Positions 17,745 through 44,075 of a stretch of DNA of 64,000 nucleotides are shown here, piece by piece. Each line of letters begins with the position of its first letter. Position 1 is the stretch's first letter. The notes beneath the pieces are model-generated. The model was not told where the DNA came from. It saw nothing but the letters and a program-made list of their open reading frames with translations, and ran no database searches. Source of the DNA: Spironucleus salmonicida (taxonomy: Eukaryota); the NCBI RefSeq assembly GCF_000497125.1, contig NC_090601.1, positions 1,116,001-1,180,000 of the forward strand, read 5' to 3'. Position numbers and translations under genes: made by a program.

Positions 17745-17762
17745 TGCGGAGCGGAGCGGGGA

Positions 17763-18071: not shown

Positions 18072-18081
18072 CCCTTCCACA

Positions 18082-21269: not shown

Positions 21270-21401
21270 TTGTGACAAAAAATAGTATTTATTATTATAT
21301 TATATATAAAATTTGTTTCATTTTAATTATAGAGATAAACAGGTTAAAACTCTTTTATTTGTGTAATTTGTATCAGTATAATATTAACTTTAACTATAAT
21401 A

Positions 21402-22670
21402 TCACACTTCTAACTAGTTTAAAACCTCATATCTATCTGATTCTAAATTGACTTCATATAATTATTCTATAATAGTATAAAAGGTATCTACTTTAAAAGA
21501 GTGTTAATAAAAATATTTAAATTCATGATAATTTAAGCATAAGTCTTTGCTCTTGAACTGCTTGTATTATTTATAAATAAACTCATTAATTTAAATATTC
21601 TTGAATAATAGTAATTTTTTAATGAGACAATGATATTCAATAATAAAAGTTGATTGTATTGTCTAATCACATGGTTATAAGTTACTGAAGATGTATTTGT
21701 TGCTAAAATGTTATAATGCAAACTTATAATCTTATTAAGTAATAGGATTTTTATGAAAAGAACTGTCTGATATAATACAATAAATAATATCAAAAAATCG
21801 TAAAAATTATCGCTATAGAATACAATTAAGACTTTAAAACTAATTAAGGATATATTTAGTTTATGTGTAGTTATCTTTGTAACAAACGAGGAAATATTCA
21901 TCCTTATACAAAAAATCAATTAAATTAACCATATCATATTATTAAATTAAACATAGTGTTTAAACAATTGATATCTAATAAATAACATTTTTTCTTTTAT
22001 AACTAAATCCAGGAAAATACTCATCCCCGAGGAGGAGGGCGAGACGGTCACGGTCCTGCCCGAGGACGTGCTCCAGGAACTGGGCATCGTACACCTCCAG
22101 GGTGGCTAGCTCCCCGCTGAGCAGCATTCCGAGCGCATGGAAGCTTGGTACCACGTCTGCTGCAGAGAGCAGGGCCCACTGAGCTTGGGATACGGCGATG
22201 TCGTAGCCCCGAACATAGTGCCGCGCCAGCACTGGGGCGATGAGGGAGCGCACAGCCGGGAACGAGGCGACAAGATGCTCGTGGACCTGCAGTCGCTGTC
22301 TGGGGCTCAGCCGGAAGGCCTCCTATGCGAACTTAACGTTCCCGGTGCGCTAGAACCGCGTGGCGGCTGCAGCCTAAGCCATCTGCAGGGGCAGGCAGTG
22401 CAGCGCGACGGCTTGGCTGGGATTACCGTCCTGGGCCAGCGTGACTGAGGCAGGTCCCAGAGCCAGTACACCCTGCAGGAAGCAGTCCAGTCCCGCGGTC
22501 AGGGGGCGTAGGTCTCCCCGGAATGCTGCGAGGGAAGCTTCCCGGTCGGCTAGGTAGGTTAGCAGCTCGGTGAGGTCCACGAACACGTGGCGCTCAGCGA
22601 AGGTCTCGGGGCCGCGGCGCAGGGACTCGGCCTGGGCTGCCTCGGCGACGTAGCGCTGGATGGTGGACAT
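21402..22670 (-). CDS. PIN-like XPG/FEN1-superfamily protein, 422 aa (variant B; same N-terminus, diverged C-terminus)
   Basis: Frame stays open about 200 codons past the IR edge to TGA 21404-21402. Confidence 0.65.
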
Positions 22671-22680
22671 TGTGGAAGGG

Positions 22681-22989
22681 TCACTCGCTCCGTTGCTGAC
22701 GGATAGCTGCCGCGAAGTCCAGGTCTGACTCCGAAGTGGGCGGCTCTGCCCTGCTCTGGACGGGCTGCAACTTAGATGGCGGTATCTCGGCCCCGTCACC
22801 CGCGCGGAATACTCCCGCCTCCTGACGCACCTCTAGCGTGCCACGGCAGGACGGGCAGCGGACGGCGAAGCACAGCCCCCCCGGTACTACCCGCTTGCGC
22901 GCTCGCAGCTTTGCGTTGTATGGCAGCACCGTTGCGCAGGATGCACAGGCTAGCGCGAGCGGGAGGCTGAACTACACCTAGCTCTGCAT
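22681..22989 (-). CDS. Yju2/Cwc16/CCDC130-like protein (IR1 right copy)
   Basis: Mirror of 17763-18071. Confidence 0.6.
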
Positions 22990-23007
22990 TCCCCGCTCCG
23001 CTCCGCA

Positions 23008-23541
23008 ATGGACGTCTTCGGCTACACGCCCAGTACCACGTTCAGTACCCAGCAGGCGCCCACCCTCTCCGCGGAGACGGCCCGCATGGTGTAGCAGTTC
23101 TCGCGCCTTCCAGACACCGCCGGTCCCGCAGACTGTCACTGGCGCGCCCCTCCACCGCAAGCGAAGTCCCAGGGAGCACGCAGCTTCCACGCCATGGCAG
23201 ACATGGAGCTAACCGCCAGAACACGCCTGGAGCTGGAGGCGCTCAAGCTGCGCGACCTTGGCAGGCGCCAGATCACTGACTGGGAGGGCGCGCTGCCCGA
23301 CCGCGTACAGCTGGCCGCCGTGCTTCCAGGCAGTCGGGAGTTCTATAGCCGTCTCACCAAGCGGCAACAGGCGCGCTCCATTGTGGACGAGGTCTTCCTC
23401 AAGGACGCGCGCATGACCGGCAAGGTCGAGGCCCGCCGCGGCGAGATCGAGCGCACAGAGCAGCTAGTGCGCCTCGCACGCATGAAGGTGCGATCCGCGC
23501 AGAACAAGCACGCGAAACGCAACCGCAAGCTGCACAAGTGA
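23008..23541 (+). CDS. FCF2: Fcf2-like protein (IR1 right copy)
   Basis: Mirror of 17211-17744. Confidence 0.75.
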
Positions 23542-23556
23542 GCTACCACTCCACTA

Positions 23557-23886
23557 ATGGCGACCGCTAACCAGCACATCGAAGCCCTCGAGCGACATGA
23601 GGCGAGACAACGTATGGCATCTCACGCACTGCTTGCAGTTTTCTTATGCTTCCTGGTTACGGGTCTCGTTCTCCGGGCTCGCGGCTCCGCCCAGCTCCCG
23701 GGGCTGGAAGCGCTACTGGCGCCAGATCTCGCTGCTATTACCGCGACTAGACAGGCAGACGAGCTCAGACGCGCACTGGGAGCGGTGCTCCTGGAGGAAC
23801 CAGAGGTTCCCTTCTACACCACACTCCACGGCACGCCGGTGTTCGTGGGTGCGGACGGCCTCCTCCGCGGCGTTACATTCAAATGA
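23557..23886 (+). CDS. Hypothetical single-TM protein (IR1 right copy)
   Basis: Mirror of 16866-17195. Confidence 0.6.
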   Translation: MATANQHIEALERHEARQRMASHALLAVFLCFLVTGLVLRARGSAQLPGLEALLAPDLAAITATRQADELRRALGAVLLEEPEVPFYTTLHGTPVFVGADGLLRGVTFK

Positions 23887-24134
23887 AATTCAATTTTATC
23901 TCTATTTGATGTGATGCTTCTTCGGTAAAATTTATTCGCTCACGTATAAAGTATGTCTATTTCTATAGTTAAATTTAATGAATTGTATAATTAGTAATTG
24001 TTCATCAATCCGTATATAGAATATAATATCTATATATATTAACAAATATATGTAATATAATTTAATCTCGATCTAAAAATATTACTATCATATTTAGTAT
24101 ATATCGGCGCGCTAAGATCAACTCTAATTATTAA

Positions 24135-24614
24135 ATGAGAACCGTGATTAAACCAGTAAATAAACCACACATCTAAAAATATAGTGAGCAGTATTCGCAT
24201 AAATCAACTCTCTTACCGTGCATGAAGAACAAATCTTTCTAGATGCCTTCATTACACGCAAGTTCCTTTAGTGTTCCGTAGGCATATCTTACTAAACCTG
24301 TCCGAAGCTTAATCCTGAGAAATGTATACCCAGAACAAACAGATTAAATTCCGGTATTAAAAAGATAGATATCTTAGATAAGCTTCAGGGATTTCACCCA
24401 GGACATCATCCCTCACATTCGACTCCAATAGCGGCTCGCCGATATAGATAAAGTTCGTGAAGCAGCTGAGAGCGAATGGCGCGTGGTCAATAAAGTAAGG
24501 AAGGGGAGCTTTGTTGAGTAGGAGGACGGGCTGCAAGAACCGAGCCATATAAAACTCATCCGAAGGCAAAGTTTTATGCGTAGCTGCAGCAACCTTTTCG
24601 ATATTGAGAAATGA
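24135..24614 (+). CDS. Hypothetical protein, 159 aa (copy 1), straddles outer IR2 edge
   Basis: Code-6 ORF MRTVIKPVNKPHIQKY...SCSNLFDIEK*. Confidence 0.6.
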
Positions 24615-24721
24615 TGTAGTGCCCCAAAGAATGCGCGTACAACCTTTCTGCGCTAAACTAAAATGAATAGTATTTTACTCACTTCATCGTCCCTAAATTA
24701 TACAGCCCTGCATCAAAGATA

Positions 24722-25294
24722 TCACTTGTAGTCGCGCCTCTCATACCCGCCACGTCTATCACCGCCATCTCTTTTCTCGTATCCACCACGCCTGTCGCCG
24801 CCGTCCCTATCACCACCACGCCTATCATTATAACCGCCACGTCTATCACCACCATCTCTGTCACCACCGCGTCTGTCATTATATCCTCCGCGTCTGTCAC
24901 CGCCATTGAATCCACCACGGTTATCACCACGTTTTGCAAAGCTTTCTCTAATGTTCTTATATACTTCGGCTTCCTCGTCACCACTGACGATGGACAACTT
25001 AACCTCATTCTGCCCAAGGACAAGAGGTGTCTCGGCAAACTCTTCCATAACCTTCTTGGTTGCATCAACGTCTTATTCAGAAAACCTTAGCACGGCCTCA
25101 GTCTTACCAGCGGCATAGTCTACATGCTTGATGAAACCAAACTTTCCAAACACTTCTTTGAGAATCTCGCGTGTTACACGCTGATCCTTGACATCCTCTG
25201 AGTCAGGGCGGAAATCTCTGTCAAATACACCATCATTGACACCAATGACGCCGATATCTGATATCCTAAGGAGGAGGTCCTTAATAAATTCCAT
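24722..25294 (-). CDS. Stand-alone xRRM (La-type C-terminal RRM) + RGG-repeat RNA-binding protein, 190 aa (copy 1)
   Basis: LLLRISDI...VTREILKEVFGKFGFIKHVDYAAGKTEAVLRF...LSIVSGDEEAEVYKNI, then DRRGG repeats; one TAA read through. Confidence 0.85.
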
Positions 25295-25401
25295 TTGGAG
25301 GAAGTGAAAGAGGAGAGGAGAATTTGTGGAGTGGTGTATATAATATTGAACTAACAGAGCGGGGTGGAGATTATTATATAAAACGGGCCACATGATCACG
25401 A

Positions 25402-25623
25402 ATGGAACACGTGAATGCAAAGATTTACAAGGCCTCACAGATTGAGAACCTTAACCAAGTTTTCTTGTCATAATAGTCTTAAAAGTCCGCCGTCGCCGCG
25501 GAACATAGCTAGAGAGGTATAGTATAGGCACACCCGCCTGTATATGCGCATATCGATCGTCCTCAGATTCTAGACGTACTAGATTCCGCACAGGCTAGAA
25601 AAGCGGCTAAGCTCCTCGAATGA
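25402..25623 (+). CDS. Small hypothetical protein, 73 aa, inside the IR2 arm (also at 28120-28341 -, 31556-31777 +, 34274-34495 -, 37711-37932 +)
   Basis: MEHVNAKIYKASQIENL...KAAKLLE*; divergent from the xRRM gene; stop lies 6 nt from the arm edge. Confidence 0.45.
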
Positions 25624-25851
25624 TAATTTCAGGTATATTGATACTCATTCATTATCAATTTTGTAAAGTATATTTTGCTGTCTCTTCAACATAGAGGTTT
25701 ATATTGATCAATGTTCATGAATAATCACTATCCGTATTTCTCTCATCTATTCTGTTGAACACTGAGAGTTTGATATTCTATGGTTTTTAGAGCTTTAATA
25801 TATTTATATACCATTAATATATAAAAATTATAGATTATTTGATCTTAGCAA

Positions 25852-26163
25852 ATGCGAGATATGTCGTTAGCACGACGTAGGGGGTAACACACAAGTGATC
25901 AAAGAAATAAACGTAAATAATGTGTATTGCCGTAAAAGTTATAATAAATACCCGACTGTGGAATTAGTACTCATATACCTCCTTTACAAACCCCATCTTA
26001 ACTCACATCAAACAGGTTGTGCCAGACTATGAATTAAATGCTCCTGGTAGATACATTAAATAAGGAAGATATCTCATAAGGTGAAGATAGGACTGACTAT
26101 ACCCTACATAACATCTAGTCTGAAATTCAACAGCTTGAATGCCTCAAGTTGGTGATAAAATGA
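25852..26163 (+). CDS. Hypothetical protein, 103 aa, in the invertible spacer
   Basis: Code-6 ORF MRDMSLARRRGQ...LKLVIK* behind an AT-rich upstream element. Confidence 0.5.
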
Positions 26164-27700
26164 TCTTTTGTGCTCAGTTATGATAAGCTTCAAACGCACC
26201 AACCGCTAAATATTAAGTTGGAAACTGCATACTCTAGTAAGGTTTAGGGGGTTATAATACTAAATTTATTTTAAATCATTTTAGGTAAAGTATAGCATCT
26301 AAATTATTAAGTTATCCGTTACGAGTACTCTATTTTCTATATATAGTTATTATATTAAGTAATTAATTATGAATTTATTCATATCAATGTTAGTACTTCG
26401 CCGAATTTTGATTTTTAACTTTTATCATAGAGAGTTATATAGATATTATAAGGAGCACTAGCAAAAATTACTAAAATTATATTAAAAATTAGATGCCATT
26501 AATTGATATTTATTATATAAGCTAATTTATAGTATCTAATCAGAATAAATTAAAATATATTCTAAATATTATTTTGTTTAAGAAGGTCTTCTTCTAATTT
26601 TCATTAATCTTTTAAAATTGACCTATCTGTCAATCATGATTATGTTTTATAATTTTCAAGTTTAAATATAAGATTTGTTATGATATAGAAATGTAGTAAT
26701 GTAATATTTTATACTAACTAAGTAAAGTTTGATCTTTGAATAATCATTACCATAAATATATTTTTTAAAATGTTAATAATTTTTAAATAATTATCTAGGT
26801 TAGAAACTTATAATACCAAAATGATCTAGTTATTCTGATTTTTGTAAGGCATCATACATATTAGTGTTAAACATACAGTATAACATCAATTATCTGGTAC
26901 TATTATTAACTATAAGTGTTACGAATCTTTTACTGCTAGAAAGGAATATTAGTTATTTTGAAGTTTATTCGCTCAAACGACTTAACCATATATTTAATTT
27001 CTAACTATATCGAAAATCCTGCTACTTTTTCCATAATGAGCACAATAAAGTTATTTCTCTATCGTAATTTTATTTAGTTCATATACTCATATTTATTATA
27101 TGCAATTGAATACATGGTTATTATTTAGACTTATTATTTGTGATAACCGCTCATAACTTAAGACTGTTAAATTTTCCTATAGATAAATTATTTAGTAACG
27201 TTTAAAGTAAAGTATATTAATAATTTGGAAAAGCATAAGATACCTGATACTTATAATTTGTATTCCTTATTGATAATTAGAAAATGTATTAATCAAGCGT
27301 ATTCGGCTATATAAATAATAGAAAATTCCAAAACCCGTTTATTGTAGTCTTAGTGATGGTCTAAAATATCAAACAAATTGTAAACTTTACATCCAAAACC
27401 TGACCTTATCTTTAATACTCATTGCCAAAATTCATTATTAATATAGATTATATCAATTTCTTAGTATAAATAACCCAGATATTTGCTACTGAGTAATATC
27501 CTGAAAAGATACAAAATAAAAAAATACAATAACACTACACCTTGTGTTTATATTTCAGTAACAATTTTAAAAAATACTATACAAAATGTAAAAAGATTAT
27601 TCACTCATTATAGGCATAAACACTTTAATTAGCTAATGGTTTATTTGGAAATATTCGTATTATGATGAAAAAGTAGACAACGTATTAGGATAAATTTCGT

Positions 27701-28093
27701 TCATTTGTTTACATTTATCTGGATATTTAATAATGCCTACTAATATTGGCACATACGGGTCCTTCGAGCTCCACGAAACACAGTGGTAGATTCTATTTAT
27801 TCCTTGCGAATAAGTTGATTTTAATCAATAAACATGAACTATGGAACTTTTAAAGTTTCATATTTTCGAAAACTACGGTGTACATAATAGTTTGGTTACT
27901 ATTTTGGACAAGATGGGATATTAAAGTCTATAATGACATTATGTTTATATGGCAGTAATACTAAATTCGGTGCATATTCAAAGTCATTAGATATCTAATA
28001 ACTGTGCAACGTGGATGGGGGCTTCATAGGATGCACTTTAGAGTACTAAAAAGATTTAACTGCGTGCATTTGGAAGGAGATAGTATGTCCCAT
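27701..28093 (-). CDS. Hypothetical protein, 130 aa, in the invertible spacer
   Basis: Code-6 ORF MGHTISFQMHAVKSF...NIQINVNK*. Confidence 0.55.
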
Positions 28094-28448
28094 TTATTAT
28101 ACACAGAAATCTTAAATTATCATTCGAGGAGCTTAGCCGCTTTTCTAGCCTGTGCGGAATCTAGTACGTCTAGAATCTGAGGACGATCGATATGCGCATA
28201 TACAGGCGGGTGTGCCTATACTATACCTCTCTAGCTATGTTCCGCGGCGACGGCGGACTTTTAAGACTATTATGACAAGAAAACTTGGTTAAGGTTCTCA
28301 ATCTGTGAGGCCTTGTAAATCTTTGCATTCACGTGTTCCATTCGTGATCATGTGGCCCGTTTTATATAATAATCTCCACCCCGCTCTGTTAGTTCAATAT
28401 TATATACACCACTCCACAAATTCTCCTCTCCTCTTTCACTTCCTCCAA

Positions 28449-29021
28449 ATGGAATTTATTAAGGACCTCCTCCTTAGGATATCAGATATCGGCGTCATTG
28501 GTGTCAATGATGGTGTATTTGACAGAGATTTCCGCCCTGACTCAGAGGATGTCAAGGATCAGCGTGTAACACGCGAGATTCTCAAAGAAGTGTTTGGAAA
28601 GTTTGGTTTCATCAAGCATGTAGACTATGCCGCTGGTAAGACTGAGGCCGTGCTAAGGTTTTCTGAATAAGACGTTGATGCAACCAAGAACGTTATGGAA
28701 GAGTTTGCCGAGACACCTCTTGTCCTTGGGCAGAATGAGGTTAAGTTGTCCATCGTCAGTGGTGACGAGGAAGCCGAAGTATATAAGAACATTAGAGAAA
28801 GCTTTGCAAAACGTGGTGATAACCGTGGTGGATTCAATGGCGGTGACAGACGCGGAGGATATAATGACAGACGCGGTGGTGACAGAGATGGTGGTGATAG
28901 ACGTGGCGGTTATAATGATAGGCGTGGTGGTGATAGGGACGGCGGCGACAGGCGTGGTGGATACGAGAAAAGAGATGGCGGTGATAGACGTGGCGGGTAT
29001 GAGAGGCGCGACTACAAGTGA
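28449..29021 (+). CDS. xRRM+RGG RNA-binding protein (copy 2)
   Basis: As copy 1, with one K->N SNP (AAG->AAC at 28691). Confidence 0.85.
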
Positions 29022-29734
29022 TATCTTTGATGCAGGGCTGTATAATTTAGGGACGATGAAGTGAGTAAAATACTATTCATTTTAGTTTAGCGCAGAAAGG
29101 TTGTACGCGCATTCTTTGGGCACTACATCATTTCTCAATATCGAAAAGGTTGCTGCAGCTACGCATAAAACTTTGCCTTCGGATGAGTTTTATATGGCTC
29201 GGTTCTTGCAGCCCGTCCTCCTACTCAACAAAGCTCCCCTTCCTTACTTTATTGACCACGCGCCATTCGCTCTCAGCTGCTTCACGAACTTTATCTATAT
29301 CGGCGAGCCGCTATTGGAGTCGAATGTGAGGGATGATGTCCTGGGTGAAATCCCTGAACCTAAAAAATTGCAAGTGCTAGTGTTATATAAAATAACATTT
29401 AAATACATACTAATTATTAAAACACTTCTTACAAATCTTCAGATTTAACAAAAAAATGGTTATTTTAAAATATTTACAAGCAAAATCTTTATTGATAATG
29501 AAGTTTATATCAAGTTTTCATCTTTGAATGAATATTATTACTGAAATTTGGGAAAATACGGATAAAATATCATTAATATTATCAGTTTGAATTTAATTTC
29601 AGGATGTGCAATATTTTATTAATTTATGATAAGGTATTACATTCATAATTTAATGTAAAGCTATAGACGATTATTTCTAATCTATATTCATAGATCCATA
29701 AATAATTAAATTACACATCGTGGTAGCGCTTTAA

Positions 29735-30064
29735 TCATTTTAAATCTGCTTGTTTTCGGATTTCGCAATTTTCAAGTTAAAGGTCTCGATTAAAAGTTTA
29801 TAATAATATTAACTGTTCACGAAAATCAAGTATTTGATCAATATATTCTTCACATTTAGTCATAAGATGTTATTTTTATGCTAGGAGATCAACTTTATCT
29901 AGTTCAAGTGTTAAAATTTTCTACCGAAGAAGCGTTAGTTCAGATAAACCCACTTCAGGTATGGAGTTTTACTTTACTTATTTTATTTCATCTGTATTTT
30001 ATTCTTTAAGTTCGCTAAGACGTTTTCTGAATAAGTTATTACATTAATTTAGGGACAGATTCAT
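29735..30064 (-). CDS. Hypothetical coiled-coil protein, 109 aa (copy 1)
   Basis: Code-6 ORF MNLSLNQCNNLFRKRLSELKEQ...RKQADLK*. Confidence 0.55.
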
Positions 30065-30289
30065 TTATACTAGCGAATTTTAAATTATTATATTATATTA
30101 TGTATAGTATAAATATATTTATATAAAATGTATAGAAAAGTTTTATATCTATAGTATTTAATCTACCATAGATTACTTCATTAATAGTTTAATTTATAAT
30201 TGATACCATTGGTGCTGTATTTACCGATCTAAAATATTACTATCATATTTAGTATATATCGGCGCGCTAAGATCAACTCTAATTATTAA

Positions 30290-30769
30290 ATGAGAACCGT
30301 GATTAAACCAGTAAATAAACCACACATCTAAAAATATAGTGAGCAGTATTCGCATAAATCAACTCTCTTACCGTGCATGAAGAACAAATCTTTCTAGATG
30401 CCTTCATTACACGCAAGTTCCTTTAGTGTTCCGTAGGCATATCTTACTAAACCTGTCCGAAGCTTAATCCTGAGAAATGTATACCCAGAACAAACAGATT
30501 AAATTCCGGTATTAAAAAGATAGATATCTTAGATAAGCTTCAGGGATTTCACCCAGGACATCATCCCTCACATTCGACTCCAATAGCGGCTCGCCGATAT
30601 AGATAAAGTTCGTGAAGCAGCTGAGAGCGAATGGCGCGTGGTCAATAAAGTAAGGAAGGGGAGCTTTGTTGAGTAGGAGGACGGGCTGCAAGAACCGAGC
30701 CATATAAAACTCATCCGAAGGCAAAGTTTTATGCGTAGCTGCAGCAACCTTTTCGATATTGAGAAATGA
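30290..30769 (+). CDS. Hypothetical protein, 159 aa (copy 2)
   Basis: Direct repeat of 24135-24614. Confidence 0.6.
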
Positions 30770-30875
30770 TGTAGTGCCCAAAGAATGCGCGTACAACCTT
30801 TCTGCGCTAAACTAAAATGAATAGTATTTTACTCACTTCATCGTCCCTAAATTATACAGCCCTGCATCAAAGATA

Positions 30876-31448
30876 TCACTTGTAGTCGCGCCTCTCATAC
30901 CCGCCACGTCTATCACCGCCATCTCTTTTCTCGTATCCACCACGCCTGTCGCCGCCGTCCCTATCACCACCACGCCTATCATTATAACCGCCACGTCTAT
31001 CACCACCATCTCTGTCACCACCGCGTCTGTCATTATATCCTCCGCGTCTGTCACCGCCATTGAATCCACCACGGTTATCACCACGTTTTGCAAAGCTTTC
31101 TCTAATGTTCTTATATACTTCGGCTTCCTCGTCACCACTGACGATGGACAACTTAACCTCATTCTGCCCAAGGACAAGAGGTGTCTCGGCAAACTCTTCC
31201 ATAACGTTCTTGGTTGCATCAACGTCTTATTCAGAAAACCTTAGCACGGCCTCAGTCTTACCAGCGGCATAGTCTACATGCTTGATGAAACCAAACTTTC
31301 CAAACACTTCTTTGAGAATCTCGCGTGTTACACGCTGATCCTTGACATCCTCTGAGTCAGGGCGGAAATCTCTGTCAAATACACCATCATTGACACCAAT
31401 GACGCCGATATCTGATATCCTAAGGAGGAGGTCCTTAATAAATTCCAT
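30876..31448 (-). CDS. xRRM+RGG RNA-binding protein (copy 3)
   Basis: Carries the same SNP as copy 2. Confidence 0.85.
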
Positions 31449-31803
31449 TTGGAGGAAGTGAAAGAGGAGAGGAGAATTTGTGGAGTGGTGTATATAATAT
31501 TGAACTAACAGAGCGGGGTGGAGATTATTATATAAAACGGGCCACATGATCACGAATGGAACACGTGAATGCAAAGATTTACAAGGCCTCACAGATTGAG
31601 AACCTTAACCAAGTTTTCTTGTCATAATAGTCTTAAAAGTCCGCCGTCGCCGCGGAACATAGCTAGAGAGGTATAGTATAGGCACACCCGCCTGTATATG
31701 CGCATATCGATCGTCCTCAGATTCTAGACGTACTAGATTCCGCACAGGCTAGAAAAGCGGCTAAGCTCCTCGAATGATAATTTAAGATTTCTGTGTATAA
31801 TAA

Positions 31804-32196
31804 ATGGGACATACTATCTCCTTCCAAATGCACGCAGTTAAATCTTTTTAGTACTCTAAAGTGCATCCTATGAAGCCCCCATCCACGTTGCACAGTTATT
31901 AGATATCTAATGACTTTGAATATGCACCGAATTTAGTATTACTGCCATATAAACATAATGTCATTATAGACTTTAATATCCCATCTTGTCCAAAATAGTA
32001 ACCAAACTATTATGTACACCGTAGTTTTCGAAAATATGAAACTTTAAAAGTTCCATAGTTCATGTTTATTGATTAAAATCAACTTATTCGCAAGGAATAA
32101 ATAGAATCTACCACTGTGTTTCGTGGAGCTCGAAGGACCCGTATGTGCCAATATTAGTAGGCATTATTAAATATCCAGATAAATGTAAACAAATGA
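31804..32196 (+). CDS. Hypothetical protein, 130 aa (inverted spacer copy)
   Basis: Reverse complement of 27701-28093. Confidence 0.55.
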
Positions 32197-33733
32197 ACGA
32201 AATTTATCCTAATACGTTGTCTACTTTTTCATCATAATACGAATATTTCCAAATAAACCATTAGCTAATTAAAGTGTTTATGCCTATAATGAGTGAATAA
32301 TCTTTTTACATTTTGTATAGTATTTTTTAAAATTGTTACTGAAATATAAACACAAGGTGTAGTGTTATTGTATTTTTTTATTTTGTATCTTTTCAGGATA
32401 TTACTCAGTAGCAAATATCTGGGTTATTTATACTAAGAAATTGATATAATCTATATTAATAATGAATTTTGGCAATGAGTATTAAAGATAAGGTCAGGTT
32501 TTGGATGTAAAGTTTACAATTTGTTTGATATTTTAGACCATCACTAAGACTACAATAAACGGGTTTTGGAATTTTCTATTATTTATATAGCCGAATACGC
32601 TTGATTAATACATTTTCTAATTATCAATAAGGAATACAAATTATAAGTATCAGGTATCTTATGCTTTTCCAAATTATTAATATACTTTACTTTAAACGTT
32701 ACTAAATAATTTATCTATAGGAAAATTTAACAGTCTTAAGTTATGAGCGGTTATCACAAATAATAAGTCTAAATAATAACCATGTATTCAATTGCATATA
32801 ATAAATATGAGTATATGAACTAAATAAAATTACGATAGAGAAATAACTTTATTGTGCTCATTATGGAAAAAGTAGCAGGATTTTCGATATAGTTAGAAAT
32901 TAAATATATGGTTAAGTCGTTTGAGCGAATAAACTTCAAAATAACTAATATTCCTTTCTAGCAGTAAAAGATTCGTAACACTTATAGTTAATAATAGTAC
33001 CAGATAATTGATGTTATACTGTATGTTTAACACTAATATGTATGATGCCTTACAAAAATCAGAATAACTAGATCATTTTGGTATTATAAGTTTCTAACCT
33101 AGATAATTATTTAAAAATTATTAACATTTTAAAAAATATATTTATGGTAATGATTATTCAAAGATCAAACTTTACTTAGTTAGTATAAAATATTACATTA
33201 CTACATTTCTATATCATAACAAATCTTATATTTAAACTTGAAAATTATAAAACATAATCATGATTGACAGATAGGTCAATTTTAAAAGATTAATGAAAAT
33301 TAGAAGAAGACCTTCTTAAACAAAATAATATTTAGAATATATTTTAATTTATTCTGATTAGATACTATAAATTAGCTTATATAATAAATATCAATTAATG
33401 GCATCTAATTTTTAATATAATTTTAGTAATTTTTGCTAGTGCTCCTTATAATATCTATATAACTCTCTATGATAAAAGTTAAAAATCAAAATTCGGCGAA
33501 GTACTAACATTGATATGAATAAATTCATAATTAATTACTTAATATAATAACTATATATAGAAAATAGAGTACTCGTAACGGATAACTTAATAATTTAGAT
33601 GCTATACTTTACCTAAAATGATTTAAAATAAATTTAGTATTATAACCCCCTAAACCTTACTAGAGTATGCAGTTTCCAACTTAATATTTAGCGGTTGGTG
33701 CGTTTGAAGCTTATCATAACTGAGCACAAAAGA

Positions 33734-34045
33734 TCATTTTATCACCAACTTGAGGCATTCAAGCTGTTGAATTTCAGACTAGATGTTATGTAGGGTATAG
33801 TCAGTCCTATCTTCACCTTATGAGATATCTTCCTTATTTAATGTATCTACCAGGAGCATTTAATTCATAGTCTGGCACAACCTGTTTGATGTGAGTTAAG
33901 ATGGGGTTTGTAAAGGAGGTATATGAGTACTAATTCCACAGTCGGGTATTTATTATAACTTTTACGGCAATACACATTATTTACGTTTATTTCTTTGATC
34001 ACTTGTGTGTTACCCCCTACGTCGTGCTAACGACATATCTCGCAT
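33734..34045 (-). CDS. Hypothetical protein, 103 aa (inverted spacer copy)
   Basis: Reverse complement of 25852-26163. Confidence 0.5.
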
Positions 34046-34602
34046 TTGCTAAGATCAAATAATCTATAATTTTTATATATTAATGGTATATAAATATATT
34101 AAAGCTCTAAAAACCATAGAATATCAAACTCTCAGTGTTCAACAGAATAGATGAGAGAAATACGGATAGTGATTATTCATGAACATTGATCAATATAAAC
34201 CTCTATGTTGAAGAGACAGCAAAATATACTTTACAAAATTGATAATGAATGAGTATCAATATACCTGAAATTATCATTCGAGGAGCTTAGCCGCTTTTCT
34301 AGCCTGTGCGGAATCTAGTACGTCTAGAATCTGAGGACGATCGATATGCGCATATACAGGCGGGTGTGCCTATACTATACCTCTCTAGCTATGTTCCGCG
34401 GCGACGGCGGACTTTTAAGACTATTATGACAAGAAAACTTGGTTAAGGTTCTCAATCTGTGAGGCCTTGTAAATCTTTGCATTCACGTGTTCCATTCGTG
34501 ATCATGTGGCCCGTTTTATATAATAATCTCCACCCCGCTCTGTTAGTTCAATATTATATACACCACTCCACAAATTCTCCTCTCCTCTTTCACTTCCTCC
34601 AA

Positions 34603-35175
34603 ATGGAATTTATTAAGGACCTCCTCCTTAGGATATCAGATATCGGCGTCATTGGTGTCAATGATGGTGTATTTGACAGAGATTTCCGCCCTGACTCAGA
34701 GGATGTCAAGGATCAGCGTGTAACACGCGAGATTCTCAAAGAAGTGTTTGGAAAGTTTGGTTTCATCAAGCATGTAGACTATGCCGCTGGTAAGACTGAG
34801 GCCGTGCTAAGGTTTTCTGAATAAGACGTTGATGCAACCAAGAAGGTTATGGAAGAGTTTGCCGAGACACCTCTTGTCCTTGGGCAGAATGAGGTTAAGT
34901 TGTCCATCGTCAGTGGTGACGAGGAAGCCGAAGTATATAAGAACATTAGAGAAAGCTTTGCAAAACGTGGTGATAACCGTGGTGGATTCAATGGCGGTGA
35001 CAGACGCGGAGGATATAATGACAGACGCGGTGGTGACAGAGATGGTGGTGATAGACGTGGCGGTTATAATGATAGGCGTGGTGGTGATAGGGACGGCGGC
35101 GACAGGCGTGGTGGATACGAGAAAAGAGATGGCGGTGATAGACGTGGCGGGTATGAGAGGCGCGACTACAAGTGA
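34603..35175 (+). CDS. xRRM+RGG RNA-binding protein (copy 4)
   Basis: Same allele as copy 1. Confidence 0.85.
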
Positions 35176-35889
35176 TATCTTTGATGCAGGGCTGTATAAT
35201 TTAGGGACGATGAAGTGAGTAAAATACTATTCATTTTAGTTTAGCGCAGAAAGGTTGTACGCGCATTCTTTGGGGCACTACATCATTTCTCAATATCGAA
35301 AAGGTTGCTGCAGCTACGCATAAAACTTTGCCTTCGGATGAGTTTTATATGGCTCGGTTCTTGCAGCCCGTCCTCCTACTCAACAAAGCTCCCCTTCCTT
35401 ACTTTATTGACCACGCGCCATTCGCTCTCAGCTGCTTCACGAACTTTATCTATATCGGCGAGCCGCTATTGGAGTCGAATGTGAGGGATGATGTCCTGGG
35501 TGAAATCCCTGAACCTAAAAAATTGCAAGTGCTAGTGTTATATAAAATAACATTTAAATACATACTAATTATTAAAACACTTCTTACAAATCTTCAGATT
35601 TAACAAAAAAATGGTTATTTTAAAATATTTACAAGCAAAATCTTTATTGATAATGAAGTTTATATCAAGTTTTCATCTTTGAATGAATATTATTACTGAA
35701 ATTTGGGAAAATACGGATAAAATATCATTAATATTATCAGTTTGAATTTAATTTCAGGATGTGCAATATTTTATTAATTTATGATAAGGTATTACATTCA
35801 TAATTTAATGTAAAGCTATAGACGATTATTTCTAATCTATATTCATAGATCCATAAATAATTAAATTACACATCGTGGTAGCGCTTTAA

Positions 35890-36219
35890 TCATTTTAAAT
35901 CTGCTTGTTTTCGGATTTCGCAATTTTCAAGTTAAAGGTCTCGATTAAAAGTTTATAATAATATTAACTGTTCACGAAAATCAAGTATTTGATCAATATA
36001 TTCTTCACATTTAGTCATAAGATGTTATTTTTATGCTAGGAGATCAACTTTATCTAGTTCAAGTGTTAAAATTTTCTACCGAAGAAGCGTTAGTTCAGAT
36101 AAACCCACTTCAGGTATGGAGTTTTACTTTACTTATTTTATTTCATCTGTATTTTATTCTTTAAGTTCGCTAAGACGTTTTCTGAATAAGTTATTACATT
36201 AATTTAGGGACAGATTCAT
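35890..36219 (-). CDS. Hypothetical coiled-coil protein, 109 aa (copy 2)
   Basis: Direct repeat of 29735-30064. Confidence 0.55.
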
Positions 36220-36444
36220 TTATACTAGCGAATTTTAAATTATTATATTATATTATGTATAGTATAAATATATTTATATAAAATGTATAGAAAAGTTTTA
36301 TATCTATAGTATTTAATCTACCATAGATTACTTCATTAATAGTTTAATTTATAATTGATACCATTGGTGCTGTATTTACCGATCTAAAATATTACTATCA
36401 TATTTAGTATATATCGGCGCGCTAAGATCAACTCTAATTATTAA

Positions 36445-36924
36445 ATGAGAACCGTGATTAAACCAGTAAATAAACCACACATCTAAAAATATAGTGAGCA
36501 GTATTCGCATAAATCAACTCTCTTACCGTGCATGAAGAACAAATCTTTCTAGATGCCTTCATTACACGCAAGTTCCTTTAGTGTTCCGTAGGCATATCTT
36601 ACTAAACCTGTCCGAAGCTTAATCCTGAGAAATGTATACCCAGAACAAACAGATTAAATTCCGGTATTAAAAAGATAGATATCTTAGATAAGCTTCAGGG
36701 ATTTCACCCAGGACATCATCCCTCACATTCGACTCCAATAGCGGCTCGCCGATATAGATAAAGTTCGTGAAGCAGCTGAGAGCGAATGGCGCGTGGTCAA
36801 TAAAGTAAGGAAGGGGAGCTTTGTTGAGTAGGAGGACGGGCTGCAAGAACCGAGCCATATAAAACTCATCCGAAGGCAAAGTTTTATGCGTAGCTGCAGC
36901 AACCTTTTCGATATTGAGAAATGA
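36445..36924 (+). CDS. Hypothetical protein, 159 aa (copy 3)
   Basis: Direct repeat of 24135-24614. Confidence 0.6.
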
Positions 36925-37030
36925 TGTAGTGCCCAAAGAATGCGCGTACAACCTTTCTGCGCTAAACTAAAATGAATAGTATTTTACTCACTTCATCGTC
37001 CCTAAATTATACAGCCCTGCATCAAAGATA

Positions 37031-37603
37031 TCACTTGTAGTCGCGCCTCTCATACCCGCCACGTCTATCACCGCCATCTCTTTTCTCGTATCCACCACGC
37101 CTGTCGCCGCCGTCCCTATCACCACCACGCCTATCATTATAACCGCCACGTCTATCACCACCATCTCTGTCACCACCGCGTCTGTCATTATATCCTCCGC
37201 GTCTGTCACCGCCATTGAATCCACCACGGTTATCACCACGTTTTGCAAAGCTTTCTCTAATGTTCTTATATACTTCGGCTTCCTCGTCACCACTGACGAT
37301 GGACAACTTAACCTCATTCTGCCCAAGGACAAGAGGTGTCTCGGCAAACTCTTCCATAACCTTCTTGGTTGCATCAACGTCTTATTCAGAAAACCTTAGC
37401 ACGGCCTCAGTCTTACCAGCGGCATAGTCTACATGCTTGATGAAACCAAACTTTCCAAACACTTCTTTGAGAATCTCGCGTGTTACACGCTGATCCTTGA
37501 CATCCTCTGAGTCAGGGCGGAAATCTCTGTCAAATACACCATCATTGACACCAATGACGCCGATATCTGATATCCTAAGGAGGAGGTCCTTAATAAATTC
37601 CAT
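37031..37603 (-). CDS. xRRM+RGG RNA-binding protein (copy 5)
   Basis: Same coding allele as copy 1. Confidence 0.85.
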
Positions 37604-38160
37604 TTGGAGGAAGTGAAAGAGGAGAGGAGAATTTGTGGAGTGGTGTATATAATATTGAACTAACAGAGCGGGGTGGAGATTATTATATAAAACGGGCCAC
37701 ATGATCACGAATGGAACACGTGAATGCAAAGATTTACAAGGCCTCACAGATTGAGAACCTTAACCAAGTTTTCTTGTCATAATAGTCTTAAAAGTCCGCC
37801 GTCGCCGCGGAACATAGCTAGAGAGGTATAGTATAGGCACACCCGCCTGTATATGCGCATATCGATCGTCCTCAGATTCTAGACGTACTAGATTCCGCAC
37901 AGGCTAGAAAAGCGGCTAAGCTCCTCGAATGATAATTTCAGGTATATTGATACTCATTCATTATCAATTTTGTAAAGTATATTTTGCTGTCTCTTCAACA
38001 TAGAGGTTTATATTGATCAATGTTCATGAATAATCACTATCCGTATTTCTCTCATCTATTCTGTTGAACACTGAGAGTTTGATATTCTATGGTTTTTAGA
38101 GCTTTAATATATTTATATACCATTAATATATAAAAATTATAGATTATTTGATCTTAGCAA

Positions 38161-38472
38161 ATGCGAGATATGTCGTTAGCACGACGTAGGGGGTAACACA
38201 CAAGTGATCAAAGAAATAAACGTAAATAATGTGTATTGCCGTAAAAGTTATAATAAATACCCGACTGTGGAATTAGTACTCATATACCTCCTTTACAAAC
38301 CCCATCTTAACTCACATCAAACAGGTTGTGCCAGACTATGAATTAAATGCTCCTGGTAGATACATTAAATAAGGAAGATATCTCATAAGGTGAAGATAGG
38401 ACTGACTATACCCTACATAACATCTAGTCTGAAATTCAACAGCTTGAATGCCTCAAGTTGGTGATAAAATGA
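38161..38472 (+). CDS. Hypothetical protein, 103 aa (third copy)
   Basis: Direct repeat of 25852-26163. Confidence 0.5.
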
Positions 38473-38679
38473 TCTTTTGTGCTCAGTTATGATAAGCTTC
38501 AAACGCACCAACCGCTAAATATTAAGTTGGAAACTGCATACTCTAGTAAGGTTTAGGGGGTTATAATGTTCACTTTTTATGATTTGTATTAATTGTTTGG
38601 TTTTAAATTTTATCTTATAGAGATTTAATATATTAAAGTTTCCTCAATTTTATTTACTTCCAATTTACCATTTCATAAA

Positions 38680-39036
38680 ATGACCAGGCAGGTGATGCGG
38701 TTCCAATTACAGTAGCTGGGTGACGAGCTGGAGATAGCGCGTATAGAAGTTTAGGAGGGCAAGGATGCCCAGATGGGGTCTGTGCTGCTGAAGGAGATTA
38801 GGATGCTGCAGGCGAGACTGGAGCTGCTGGACGCGAGGGCTGCAGAGGAAGGTATGTAGGTGGCAGCAGCATTGGAGGTCCAGAAGCGCACGGTATTGCG
38901 CATGGTTGGCTCGAGGGAGGCGCATCTCGCCGGAGAAAAGCGAGACGCGGCGGAGCGTGTAGCCACAGCTAAGCGCAGGGTCCAGGAACTCGGGGCGGCG
39001 CGTGAGGAGCTTCGCGGTCGCATCAGAGGCCTCTGA
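38680..39036 (+). CDS. Hypothetical coiled-coil protein, 118 aa, GC-rich
   Basis: Code-6 ORF MTRQVMRFQLQQLGDELEIAR...ELRGRIRGL*. Confidence 0.65.
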
Positions 39037-39060
39037 GTAATTCATCTAATTCCACTCCTA

Positions 39061-39354
39061 ATGCAGTTCAAGTTTACGTCGGCTGAGACGGGCTTCACGG
39101 CGAGCGTGACAAAGGAGATCTCGTCGATCGCGCAGCTGTTCGAGATCGCCGGGGAGGCCATGGGGATCGCGGGCGAGTTCATCCTCCAGACGCCAGAGTA
39201 CCGCCTGGGGAAGGACGATCGCGTGAAGTTCCCGCAGCTGCAGCCGGAGAACGAGTACAAGCACTTTCTGGTGGTCCCGACCGGTGGAAGACAGCCGGCG
39301 CTTTAGGCGACGCTGGTGGACGTGGACCCAAGCGGGGGTGCGGAGGAAGTGTGA
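39061..39354 (+). CDS. Putative ubiquitin-like (beta-grasp) protein, 97 aa, GG at residues 75-76 (left copy)
   Basis: MQFKFTSAETG...HFLVVPTGG followed by a 21-aa extension; one TAG read through. Confidence 0.5.
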
Positions 39355-39383
39355 TTGTATATGTCGGCACTCGCTTCCTCAAA

Positions 39384-39899
39384 ATGAACAACATCGAAAC
39401 TGCGTACCTGCGCAGCAAAAAGCGCCTAGGGGGCCACCCCTGCCGCCTCGTCCTGGACCGCAGAATATGCGAGTCCCAGCTGTCGACCTCCAGATAGCTG
39501 GCCGCAGTACGGGAAAGCCGTGACCGCATAGCTCGAATGCCGTCGCCCCCACCTGATAGCGCTCCAGTCAACGAGCTGCAGTAGTTCTGGGCCCGCTAGG
39601 CCAAAACGGCAAGACTTTAGAATGAAATGACGCAGAGAAATGTCAGAGATGTCGAAATCGTCAACCAAAACGAGAAATAGATTGAAACCTACTATGCATT
39701 CGAACAGATAGAGACGGTGCGCCGGCGTCCACTAAGATAACGATTACCTGACGATATTTGGGATCTTACGTAAGAAATAAAGAGAGTGACTAAAGTAGAT
39801 GAATGGTTGGAGAGCGTACTTCTAGGCCGAATTGCAGTACAAACAATGCAGCTGCGAAGGATGCGGCGGGAATTGACCTACGGTTTTGATTTTGAATGA
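39384..39899 (+). CDS. Hypothetical protein, 171 aa (left copy)
   Basis: Code-6 ORF MNNIETAYLRSKKRLGGHP...YGFDFE*. Confidence 0.6.
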
Positions 39900-40281
39900 A
39901 ATATAATTATTATATAAAATATTCTTGTGATTTCAATTTAAAATCCGACCACCACTTCTCTATTTCGGCTCTTTGATATCCTGGACCCTGGACCGTTCCA
40001 GCTTCTGTAGAAATCTCTGAGACAATGAGAAGGCCCGTTTGCTTACCAGCTTTAGATTTTGCAGTCTGAGCTGAGTCGGGTTTGAATATTTTCAATTATT
40101 TTTTAACGTCATTTAGGTAGTGACTATATAACAAAGAACATTTTAGACAATAATATTTAGTCGTGTTTAACAAACAGCAGATGTATGCAAATGCATTTTC
40201 TTAGTGTTAGTTAATATTTAAGTTTTAAATTAATATTGTAATGGAAGCATGCAATACTAATTTAAGAATAAACTTATCGAA

Positions 40282-40917
40282 TCACTCTGCTAAGCAAGTT
40301 TTTGCAGATTCATATATATTATAAATAGTGCTAGTTGATCCAAACATGGTCCAGTCTACATTATAAACTCTGCAGCCCATTCCCTTAAGCTACTATACTA
40401 ATATTTTATAACATGCATCAAGTCCTTCTAAATATTCAACTTAAATGTTCATCTCGTAATCACGTTTTCTTATATTTTTTATTCTATAAAGGCAAGTTTC
40501 TGGCGAGACATCAAGATAAACTACTGCGGTTGGAAGAGGAATCTTAGAGACAATATCATTGTATTTAATTAAGTATTAATCAAACTAGTTCTATGATATG
40601 AAACCATCTTAAAACGCTAATCTCGCAAATACGGAATCTGAGAACACACTTCTATCTAATATAACTATATTATTCGGTTATTCAATAGCTATCTAGCATG
40701 CATGTTTATAGTGTTGTATTCTTTGTTCTAAAAACCACATTTAGAATTCAAAGGACCATTTTTTAGGGTCTTCATAGAACTTTGCCAAATAAGGGTTATC
40801 GGTAACGGGTTCCTCTAACGCATATAAATTGTACTCATTAGCTAAATTATGCAGTAATGATGTTTTACCGGCTGCTATACCACCCTCAAGAATCAAAAGA
40901 TTAGGCAGGGAATTCAT
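40282..40917 (-). CDS. Deoxynucleoside kinase (dNK/dAK/dGK family), 211 aa (left copy)
   Basis: Mirror of 41278-41913. Confidence 0.92.
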
Positions 40918-41277
40918 TATATAAAGGAGAGGTGAATTGAAATTTTGGTTATATTATATATTTAATATGTATCTACATTTTCACCCGGGAAATACAACTG
41001 AAGGATTCTATCTTTATTTATTGAACCTAATCAAATATATCTTTAATACTATTATTACAACAGAGTTACTAAAATCCAATTTGTATAATAGTGTCATACT
41101 TTTATTATTTGAAAAAAAATAGAAATCATCGATTTGATGTATTTAATTTAATTTTTATATTTGATTAGGTTCAATAAATAAAGATAGAATCCTTCAGTTG
41201 TATTTCCCGGGTGAAAATGTAGATACATATTAAATATATAATATAACCAAAATTTCAATTCACCTCTCCTTTATATA

Positions 41278-41913
41278 ATGAATTCCCTGCCTAATCTTTT
41301 GATTCTTGAGGGTGGTATAGCAGCCGGTAAAACATCATTACTGCATAATTTAGCTAATGAGTACAATTTATATGCGTTAGAGGAACCCGTTACCGATAAC
41401 CCTTATTTGGCAAAGTTCTATGAAGACCCTAAAAAATGGTCCTTTGAATTCTAAATGTGGTTTTTAGAACAAAGAATACAACACTATAAACATGCATGCT
41501 AGATAGCTATTGAATAACCGAATAATATAGTTATATTAGATAGAAGTGTGTTCTCAGATTCCGTATTTGCGAGATTAGCGTTTTAAGATGGTTTCATATC
41601 ATAGAACTAGTTTGATTAATACTTAATTAAATACAATGATATTGTCTCTAAGATTCCTCTTCCAACCGCAGTAGTTTATCTTGATGTCTCGCCAGAAACT
41701 TGCCTTTATAGAATAAAAAATATAAGAAAACGTGATTACGAGATGAACATTTAAGTTGAATATTTAGAAGGACTTGATGCATGTTATAAAATATTAGTAT
41801 AGTAGCTTAAGGGAATGGGCTGCAGAGTTTATAATGTAGACTGGACCATGTTTGGATCAACTAGCACTATTTATAATATATATGAATCTGCAAAAACTTG
41901 CTTAGCAGAGTGA
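41278..41913 (+). CDS. Deoxynucleoside kinase (dNK/dAK/dGK family), 211 aa (right copy)
   Basis: P-loop LEGGIAAGKT, EEPV..NPYLAKFYEDPKKWSF, LDRSVFSD, VYLDVSPETCLYRIKNIRKRDYE; absent from the ORF track because of TAR=Gln. Confidence 0.92.
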
Positions 41914-42295
41914 TTCGATAAGTTTATTCTTAAATTAGTATTGCATGCTTCCATTACAATATTAATTTAAAACTTAAATATTAACTAACACTAAGAAAAT
42001 GCATTTGCATACATCTGCTGTTTGTTAAACACGACTAAATATTATTGTCTAAAATGTTCTTTGTTATATAGTCACTACCTAAATGACGTTAAAAAATAAT
42101 TGAAAATATTCAAACCCGACTCAGCTCAGACTGCAAAATCTAAAGCTGGTAAGCAAACGGGCCTTCTCATTGTCTCAGAGATTTCTACAGAAGCTGGAAC
42201 GGTCCAGGGTCCAGGATATCAAAGAGCCGAAATAGAGAAGTGGTGGTCGGATTTTAAATTGAAATCACAAGAATATTTTATATAATAATTATATT

Positions 42296-42811: not shown

Positions 42812-42840
42812 TTTGAGGAAGCGAGTGCCGACATATACAA

Positions 42841-44018: not shown

Positions 44019-44075
44019 ATAAAAATAATGAAATTTCTAGTGAATTTAATGTTATTATTAAATTCTTTTAAAAAT

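Follow-up and report, generated by a model that had tools for sequence, protein, structure and literature searches.

Organization of the locus

The window, the whole stretch of 64,000 nucleotides that was analysed, is eukaryotic nuclear DNA from a protist, probably a diplomonad with a small genome, in which TAA and TAG are read as Gln. The repeat array at 24069-38567 amounts to 2.36 units in tandem, with a unit length of 6155 bp. A unit is made up of a 1180-bp linker and a 4975-bp cassette, the latter consisting of two 1249-bp inverted arms that flank an AT-rich spacer of 2478 bp. The array opens with a 315-bp left flank, l (24069-24383, GC 0.34), which is equivalent to the right end of each linker (30224-30538 and 36379-36693) and whose copies are identical save for an A5/A4 run at 24075. 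Self-BLAST and alignment of the arm markers place arm 1 at 24384-25632 (1249 bp) and arm 2 at 28111-29358 (1248 bp). Between them lies the forward spacer of unit 1 (25633-28110, + strand, 2478 bp, GC 0.26, from alignment), with subparts s1 (25633-26258) and s2 (26259-28110). Linker 1 (29359-30538, + strand), composed of R (29359-30223) and l (30224-30538), leads to unit 2, where arm 3 (30539-31786) and arm 4 (34265-35513), both located by marker alignment, enclose a spacer on the - strand (31787-34264). Linker 2 (35514-36693, + strand) is followed by arm 5 (36694-37941, marker alignment) and the shortened spacer of unit 3 (37942-38567, + strand, alignment), of which the first 626 bp are present in forward orientation before unique DNA begins. 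The array end is therefore off the unit boundary.

Repeat search and self-BLAST agree on this structure, which is established: an inverted pair spans 24381-29361 and 30536-35516, and direct copies recur at a spacing of 6154-6155 bp. In global alignment, cassette 2 (30539-35513), once reverse-complemented, coincides with cassette 1 (24384-29358) at every base, with 0 differences over 4975 bp; when the comparison is widened to 4981 bp, cassette 1 and the reverse complement of cassette 2 mismatch at the two outermost bases only. Such a perfect inverted match cannot have arisen by chance. The spacers of units 1 and 2 match at 2478 of 2478 positions when one is inverted and at 1486 of 2787 alignment columns when both are read directly. 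The linkers are direct repeats of one another (29362-30535 and 35517-36690, no difference in 1174 bp), and unit 3 differs from unit 1 by one homopolymer base up to the point where it ends (26258 in unit 1, 38567 in unit 3). On both sides, the boundaries of the inverted segment fall inside the arms, and the linkers beyond stay direct. These results bear out the earlier note, which had described flanks repeated directly every ~6155 bp around a segment, 30539-35513, that reverse-complements 24384-29358. Three large inverted duplications occur within 27 kb here. For IR1 and IR3, inverted repeats nearby, short-read contig depth likewise comes to about 2x, which indicates that near-identical inverted duplications are real in this genome.

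Genes of the arms and spacers

Each arm carries one gene whose 190-aa product has a La-type RRM_3 domain and an RGG tail, and the two genes of a pair are divergent. Copy 1 (24722-25294, - strand) contains one in-frame TAA, read as Gln, and its only Pfam match is RRM_3 (PF08777, E 1.1e-14; 54.8 bits against a cutoff of 22.9). Copy 2 lies at 28449-29021 (+ strand), copy 4 at 34603-35175 (+ strand) and copy 5 at 37031-37603 (- strand); the coordinates of copy 3 (30876-31448, - strand) were transferred from copy 2 through the exact inverted identity. Among solved structures, the closest chain is the C-terminal RRM of human La (1owx, E 5.5e-4). We considered a full La or LARP7 identity and rejected it because the La motif and RRM1 that would stand ahead of RRM_3 (xRRM) are absent. 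Judged from its sequence, the arm protein is one with a La-type domain and not a full La protein. At similar length, homology searching recovered only its own cluster and ribosomal protein S3, the latter through two weak matches of RGG type; a search for longer homologues with residues 1-125 came back empty, and the 90% cluster is confined to one contig.

The outer arm end also holds a fragment of another ORF, cut off by the arm end, for which the search found 0 homologues; neither of its continuations matches Pfam. None of the seven ORFs in the spacer and linker matches any Pfam family at E<=0.1, and no recognisable recombinase or transposase is encoded in either. Rfam gives no match in 24000-30600 at E<=1, and a single tRNA in the window reaches the gathering threshold. 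The upstream region of the arm gene (347 nt) folds no better than shuffled sequence (z = 0.33), and a structured RNA there was rejected as a candidate. Since the arm probably contains the whole transcript of the gene, turning the cassette over is most likely silent for expression.

Arm polymorphisms and the site of exchange

The arms (1249 and 1248 bp) are 99.76% identical, long and similar enough for homologous recombination. Numbered from the outer arm end, they differ at two positions. At position 239, arms 1 and 4 have C4, and arms 2, 3 and 5 have C3. At position 669, arms 1, 4 and 5 have C, and arms 2 and 3 have G; on the gene strand this SNP reads AAGAAGGTT versus AAGAACGTT, that is, Lys (gene copies 1, 4 and 5) versus Asn (copies 2 and 3). 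Arm 1 is thus C4 + C and joined to spacer end sL, and arm 2 is C3 + G and joined to sR. Arm 3 has l as its outer flank yet is joined to sR and carries C3 + G; arm 4 has R as its outer flank yet is joined to sL and carries C4 + C. Arm 5, joined to sL, has the mixed haplotype C3 + C.

The SNP follows the spacer end in all five arms and the homopolymer does so in four of five, arms 1-4, just as had been described before, including the mixed state of arm 5. This marker linkage is established. Since the markers track the spacer and not the outer flank, the exchange must have occurred on the outer side of position 239, within the first 238 bp of the 1249-bp arm; the earlier estimate of the outermost ~235 bp holds up well against this interval. 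An exchange inside homology is expected to leave no gain or loss of bases, and none is found at either edge of the inverted segment. If exchanges fall evenly along the arm, its outer 19% is not the likeliest site, an observation that counts against the explanation we favour below.

Arm 5 may have arisen by recombination or gene conversion, or its C3 may be a homopolymer error. The collapsed arm contig from short reads likewise combines C3 with C, each of them the majority base at its site. The units are mutually identical (0 differences), and the arms within a unit differ at two sites, which makes the divergence of the arms older than the amplification.

Copy number and orientation in short-read contigs

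Short-read contigs of public runs were compared with the assembly, with depth set against that of the unique piece 38538-39065 (8.68 in run X1, 9.79 in run X4). The DNA runs come from one sample, possibly the assembly's own source. Spacer part s2 has a depth of 18.9 (X1) and 21.2 (X4), about 2.2x for 2 assembly copies; s1 has 30 and 31.7, about 3x for 3 copies; the linker has 21.8 and 23.1, about 2.4x for 2 copies; and the arms have 45.3 and 70, about 5-7x for 5 copies. Depth exceeds the assembly's prediction for l (4.2-4.3x versus 3 copies) and for the arms in X4 (7.2x versus 5). The tandem junction from R into l is spanned by contigs in three runs from two studies (X1 record 4, assigned to linker 1, and X4 record 13 and X5 record 22, assigned to linker 2), and the junction of s1 with unique DNA at 38567/38568 is spanned by X4 record 15 and X6 record 30. 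Copy numbers and tandem junctions are in this way established. They contradict a scenario that the earlier note had named as its possible refutation, namely that each chromosome has a single unit and the assembler joined haplotypes end to end: s2 stands at ~2.2x, the linker at ~2.4x and the arms at 5-7x, and contigs bridge R to l.

Orientation is a separate matter. No short-read contig crosses a 1249-bp arm, so the inverted orientation comes from the long-read assembly alone, and it is in the assembly only that both spacer orientations are seen relative to the same flanks. Forward-reverse-forward and forward-forward-forward accord equally well with the contig graph, and two loose-end contig strings are absent from the window. 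It is conceivable, then, that the array is real and its orientation is not: the units could all face one way in the cell, or orientation could vary between molecules or genome copies, with the forward-reverse-forward path being stitched together by the assembler. Units that are 100% identical are the hardest case for an assembler, the contigs are compatible with either orientation, arm 5 differs by homopolymer length only, a typical long-read error, and the depths of l and the arms fit the copy numbers inexactly. Against this, writing l-arm-sR and R-arm-sL requires reads that join these elements, and long reads easily cross a 1.3-kb arm. Moreover, the l-anchored arm 3 is C3 + G and the R-anchored arm 4 is C4 + C, which a consensus of correctly anchored reads would not yield if all units were forward. 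The assembly is also in accord with the observed copy numbers and with the two kinds of junction. We therefore regard an assembly mosaic as rather unlikely and infer that real molecules have the orientation which the assembly shows.

Origin of the inverted unit

We consider it probable that an inverted gene pair was recently amplified in tandem and that the arms then underwent a single reciprocal exchange by homologous recombination, within their outer 238 bp. In the order of events that we infer, an inverted segmental duplication would first have produced a divergent pair of the small RNA-binding-protein gene (RRM_3 + RGG), with arms around a 2.5-kb non-coding spacer. Two differences would then have arisen between the arms, and the whole locus would have been amplified in tandem to 2.36 still-identical units, probably by unequal exchange between direct copies. 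Finally, the inverted arms of one unit would have undergone reciprocal homologous recombination within their outer 238 bp, which turned over the spacer together with at least the inner 1010 bp of both arms. Ordinary homologous recombination would suffice as the mechanism, with no dedicated recombinase required. The sequence requires only one inversion event, not a reversible, ongoing flip-flop. Unit 3 breaks off after 626 bp of spacer, which calls for one or more additional non-homologous events; this, too, tells against the proposed history.

Instead, the forward-reverse-forward arrangement could have come directly from break-induced replication in which the template was switched between inverted arms, as in human DUP-TRP/INV-DUP rearrangements, with no tandem duplication and later crossover. 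Carvalho and colleagues reportedly described in 2011 DUP-TRP/INV-DUP rearrangements mediated by inverted repeats, and the array resembles these in its three copies, its inverted middle and the inverted repeats at the switch point, the hallmark of that class. The presence of three large inverted duplications within 27 kb also speaks for replication, as do the odd array ends (24069 and 38567), which favour non-homologous junctions. However, a single switch at an inverted repeat would invert the sequence beyond it, and one switch thus fails to account for two linkers that are identical and run in direct orientation. A separate switch within an arm would be needed on each side of the inversion, and such a pair of switches is formally equivalent to a reciprocal exchange. 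No inserted or missing bases occur at the junctions within the array, and the defining features of DUP-TRP/INV-DUP, an inversion that runs past the repeat and a non-homologous end, are not those seen here. A replicative origin is distinctly unlikely.

A third possibility is that the 4975-bp cassette is a mobile or programmed element. This could mean a transposon bounded by long terminal inverted repeats, or a segment inverted by site-specific recombination, as in the FLP system or in bacterial invertase switches of the Hin/Gin type. The inverted part stops exactly at the arm ends, and the 6155-bp unit, with two inverted repeats that part two unique regions and two orientation forms, recalls the ~6-kb 2-micron plasmid of yeast (FLP/FRT). 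Unlike that plasmid, the array has no recombinase gene in its spacer or linker, lies within a 1.67-Mb contig and carries a cellular gene in its 1249-bp arms. An element is further contradicted by the Pfam result (0/7 spacer and linker ORFs, and no recombinase or transposase domain at the locus), by the cellular type of the RRM_3 gene and the ORF fragment cut by the arm end, by the restriction of the arm protein's 90% cluster to one contig, and by the flanks (...ATAAGC versus CCTAAA...), which form no target-site duplication. We consider this reading very improbable.

Relation to known systems

Inversions between inverted low-copy repeats arise by non-allelic homologous recombination at FLNA-EMD and at F8 int22h on the human X chromosome, and the arms of Y-chromosome palindromes undergo arm-to-arm gene conversion. 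Amplification followed by a single exchange, our preferred reading, gives the locus much in common with the former: kilobase-long inverted arms that are >99.7% identical, a segment found in both orientations, and breakpoints inside the homology without gain or loss. It differs in belonging to a protist and in that the two states occur in neighbouring paralogous units of one array and not as alleles. As in Y-type palindromes, the near-identity of the arms fits gene conversion. Plastid genomes and herpesvirus isomers likewise have a unique segment between large inverted repeats that takes two orientations by general recombination; there, however, both isomers coexist about equally in every sample, whereas the present array is chromosomal and its two orientations are known from neighbouring units.

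Ubeda and colleagues are said to have reported in 2014 repeat-mediated gene amplification in Leishmania. That parasitic protist and the present locus share direct and inverted repeats around genes as substrates for copy-number change. The Leishmania amplicons are extrachromosomal and arise under selection, in contrast to this array, which is chromosomal and has no known selection. A bolder view would make the locus a live recombination substrate, in which every unit's spacer keeps flipping, all combinations of orientations are present in a clonal culture, and the alternation of direct and inverted arms lets the cell raise or lower the number of copies of a highly expressed RNA-binding-protein gene. 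We think this unlikely. If true, it would be the chromosomal counterpart of the stochastic, repeat-driven amplification of Leishmania, and frequent GC-biased gene conversion, in a diplomonad regarded as largely asexual, would have produced the GC-rich, near-identical arms both here and in the inverted repeats nearby.

Significance

The single exchange that we propose is an event of a known kind, the footprint of recombination between inverted repeats, and neither a new mechanism nor a switch; the flip was probably without effect on genes. To our knowledge, direct evidence of recombination is scarce for diplomonad-like organisms. Among the matches listed, no Spironucleus salmonicida paper concerns inverted repeats of the genome by its title or abstract, and none of the Giardia papers retrieved on inverted repeats, inversion and homologous recombination deals with diplomonad inversions, as judged from titles and abstracts. 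In one such species, young duplications make up about a fifth of the genome, according to its published assembly paper (PMC9509377). For a diplomonad-like genome, the array would provide a clean, base-exact case of inverted repeats crossing over in mitosis, or in a cryptic meiosis, and the locus would offer a simple assay for the frequency of such exchanges.

Structure of the array and the inverted middle unit

Repeat search and self-BLAST reveal a tandem array at 24069-38567, with a period of 6154-6155 bp and 2.36 units. Each unit comprises a 1180-bp linker, made up of segment R (865 bp, GC 0.23) followed by segment l (315 bp, GC 0.34), and a 4975-bp cassette that contains a 1249-bp arm, a 2478-bp spacer (GC 0.26), and a second, inverted arm. 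In global alignments, the middle cassette (30539-35513) shows no differences from the reverse complement of cassette 1 (24384-29358). The two spacers match at 2478 of 2478 positions when inverted, versus 1486 of 2787 columns in direct alignment. The linkers (29359-30538 and 35514-36693) are direct and identical, with 0 differences in 1174. Unit 3 reproduces unit 1 save for one homopolymer base, and turns to unique DNA 626 bp into the forward spacer (26258 in unit 1, 38567 in unit 3). The array borders do not fall on any unit boundary: unique DNA meets l on the left at 24068/24069, and the spacer part s1 (25633-26258 in unit 1) meets unique DNA on the right at 38567/38568.

Counted from the outer end, two sites distinguish the arms of one cassette: position 239 (C4 vs C3) and position 669 (C vs G). 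Arm 1 (24384-25632) lies between l and the left spacer end, sL, and carries C4 + C; arm 2 (28111-29358) lies between R and the right spacer end, sR, and carries C3 + G. In the middle unit, arm 3 (30539-31786) joins l to sR and carries C3 + G, and arm 4 (34265-35513) joins R to sL and carries C4 + C. Arm 5 (36694-37941) is flanked by l and sL and combines C3 with C. Units are identical to one another, but the paired arms of a unit are not, which indicates that the differences at these two sites predate amplification. All that the earlier note had stated as fact about the array, the flipped cassette, and the arm markers agrees with these alignments and marker comparisons.

The best explanation, and the one we consider probable, is that homologous exchange near the outer ends of the arms inverted the middle unit. 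Because both linkers are direct, the inverted part must end within an arm on each side, and because both markers travelled with the spacer, the exchange falls within the outer 238 of 1249 bp. This bears out the earlier proposal of a crossover in the outermost ~235 bp. The location is unremarkable, since the prior probability of this interval is ~0.19 if exchanges are spread evenly along the arm. The event would have been a reciprocal exchange between two arms of one unit, formally equal to two template switches. A single such event is enough for the observed sequence, and ongoing flip-flop would be more than it requires. A replicative origin appears doubtful; a DUP-TRP/INV-DUP rearrangement with one template switch would have flipped the linker as well, and the linkers are not flipped. 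For the odd array ends, the simplest account would begin with two direct copies of l-arm-s1 (2190 bp), separated by about 4 kb, with unequal exchange as the next step. For arm 5, a second exchange between positions 239 and 669, gene conversion over a short tract, and a homopolymer error are all candidate origins.

Short-read support

Four public sequencing runs were compared as short-read contigs. X1 and X4 are DNA from one sample, from which the assembly itself may derive; X5 and X6 come from another study, and their RNA nature is a guess. The unique piece 38538-39065 served as the single-copy baseline, with word depths of 8.68 (X1) and 9.79 (X4). The collapsed arm contig has depths of 45.3 and 70 in X1 and X4, respectively (5.2x and 7.2x baseline, for five assembly copies). 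Spacer part s2 (26259-28110) yields 18.9 and 21.2 (2.2x in both, two copies), s1 30 and 31.7 (3.5x and 3.2x, three copies), and R 21.8 and 23.1 (2.5x and 2.4x, two copies). The poorest fit is l, at 36.1 and 42 (4.2x and 4.3x) for three copies. The tandem junction from R to l is spanned by contigs in X1 (record 4), X4 (record 13), and X5 (record 22), and the right end from s1 to unique DNA by contigs in X4 (record 15) and X6 (record 30). The tandem array is thus confirmed by a second data type. The depths and bridged junctions rule out one unit per chromosome with concatenated haplotypes, the scenario that the earlier note had named as refuting its reading.

None of the contigs from the four runs crosses an arm, and the contig graph multiplicities are equal for forward-reverse-forward and forward-forward-forward arrangements, so that the inverted orientation rests on the long-read assembly. 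We nevertheless regard an assembly mosaic as improbable. The 1.25-kb arms are easily spanned by long reads, which favours the assembled orientation, as does the haplotype swap in the middle unit, where l-anchored arm 3 has the type otherwise found next to R and R-anchored arm 4 the type otherwise found next to l; a read consensus of all-forward units would not produce this. The collapsed arm contig reads C3 + C, a combination that matches arm 5 but equally the commonest state among the arms at either site. Within the forward spacer, some short-read contigs leave at 25832/25838, 26750, and 27988 for at least 255 letters of non-window sequence, indicating that parts of the spacer either are dispersed repeats or have a variant at another genomic location.

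Coding content and possible expression of the cassette

A 190-aa ORF lies in each arm and includes a single in-frame TAA. Its product scores 54.8 bits against the Pfam family RRM_3, the La-type xRRM (cutoff 22.9), and finishes with a tail of RGG/RGGY repeats; among solved structures, the C-terminal RRM of human La comes closest (1owx, E 5.5e-4). Within a cassette the two copies point away from each other, both with the 5' end on the spacer side, and they differ by a Lys-to-Asn change caused by the SNP at position 669. In its outermost 300 bp, the arm also contains part of another ORF (...MARFLQPVLLL...GEIPE). This fragment is interrupted by the arm end and continues differently into l and R; neither version has a match in Pfam or a large protein database. 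The cassette contains no recognisable recombinase or transposase, as none of the seven spacer and linker ORFs matches Pfam and the stretch 24000-30600 matches no Rfam family. Target-site duplications are absent from the cassette ends. That the cassette is a programmed or mobile element is very unlikely.

An X6 contig at 24698-25615, entirely within arm 1, covers the gene and ~320 nt upstream at a depth of 2324, against about 5-136 for neighbouring X6 contigs. Fragment ends near the stop codon are marked by adapter-like loose ends. If X6 is RNA, this is weak evidence that the arm gene is strongly expressed and that its transcript stops short of the spacer, in which case spacer orientation would not matter to the gene. 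The upstream coverage would then represent a leader of unusual length among diplomonad-type genes; this stretch gave no sign of a structured RNA.

Genomic setting and neighbouring inverted duplications

Genes in the window open only with TAA and TAG as sense codons (NCBI table 6), leaving TGA as the only stop. The standard code gives 10 frames of at least 200 codons (longest 375), and TGA as sole stop gives 108 (up to 1876 codons). Table 6 genes include a 1872-aa frame at 45628-51246 (-) with 32 TAA/TAG sense codons and weak, below-cutoff matches to CFAP65/HYDIN-type Ig-like domains, a 979-aa Sec7-domain protein at 55962-58901 (+) with 10 such codons, and a 683-aa protein kinase at 14241-16289 (-). 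Obvious introns are absent, and genic blocks of 40-65% GC alternate with intergenic DNA of 20-30% GC. Code, genes, and composition together point to nuclear DNA from a hexamitid diplomonad with a small genome. They agree with the features that PMC9509377 gives for S. salmonicida: 33.5% GC overall, with duplicates (at least 2 kb, at least 95% identity) forming 19.2% of the genome and being GC-richer (44.7% vs 30.7%). A tRNA-Ser(GCU) at 44075-44158 (-) is the sole Rfam or ARAGORN match across the 64 kb. A perfect microsatellite-like array at 54158-54432 matches itself at 8-bp offsets and reads (QSIN)n in two forward frames.

Two further large inverted duplications flank the array. The arms of IR1 (16866-18743 and 22009-23886; 1878 bp, 100% identical, GC 0.65) surround a 3265-bp spacer, in which a 628-codon stop-to-stop frame at 19431-21317 (-) resembles a kinesin motor by eye. 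The gene content of these arms is an Fcf2-like gene and the 5' portion of a 600-codon frame that the arm border interrupts, leaving the right copy truncated. IR3 is a near-palindrome (39025-41039 and 41156-43170; 2015 bp, 99.85% identical, 116 bp between) whose arms hold a divergent deoxynucleoside-kinase gene pair (PF01712, E 1e-42). Both sets of arms have ~2x short-read contig depth, indicating that inverted duplications with near-identical arms, placed without regard to gene borders, are real and frequent here. We note that the arm + s1 inverted repeat around linker 2 (33639-35516 / 36691-38567) is also 1878 bp by BLAST, the IR1 arm length, which is probably coincidence. An older inverted match (3061-3729 / 12749-13417; 675 bp, ~9 kb apart) has 88% identity, in contrast to the at least 99.8% of the closely spaced inverted repeats.

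Duplications of the IR1 and IR3 type fit the duplicate-rich, GC-enriched genome described in PMC9509377, the main text of which contains neither "inverted" nor "palindrom". A literature search by title or abstract found nothing on inverted-repeat-mediated inversions in diplomonads. The five copies of the arm gene suggest a dosage effect of amplification, and nothing in the analysis points to the inversion itself as a switch. The locus adds a neat case to a process already in the textbooks and does not represent a new type of system.
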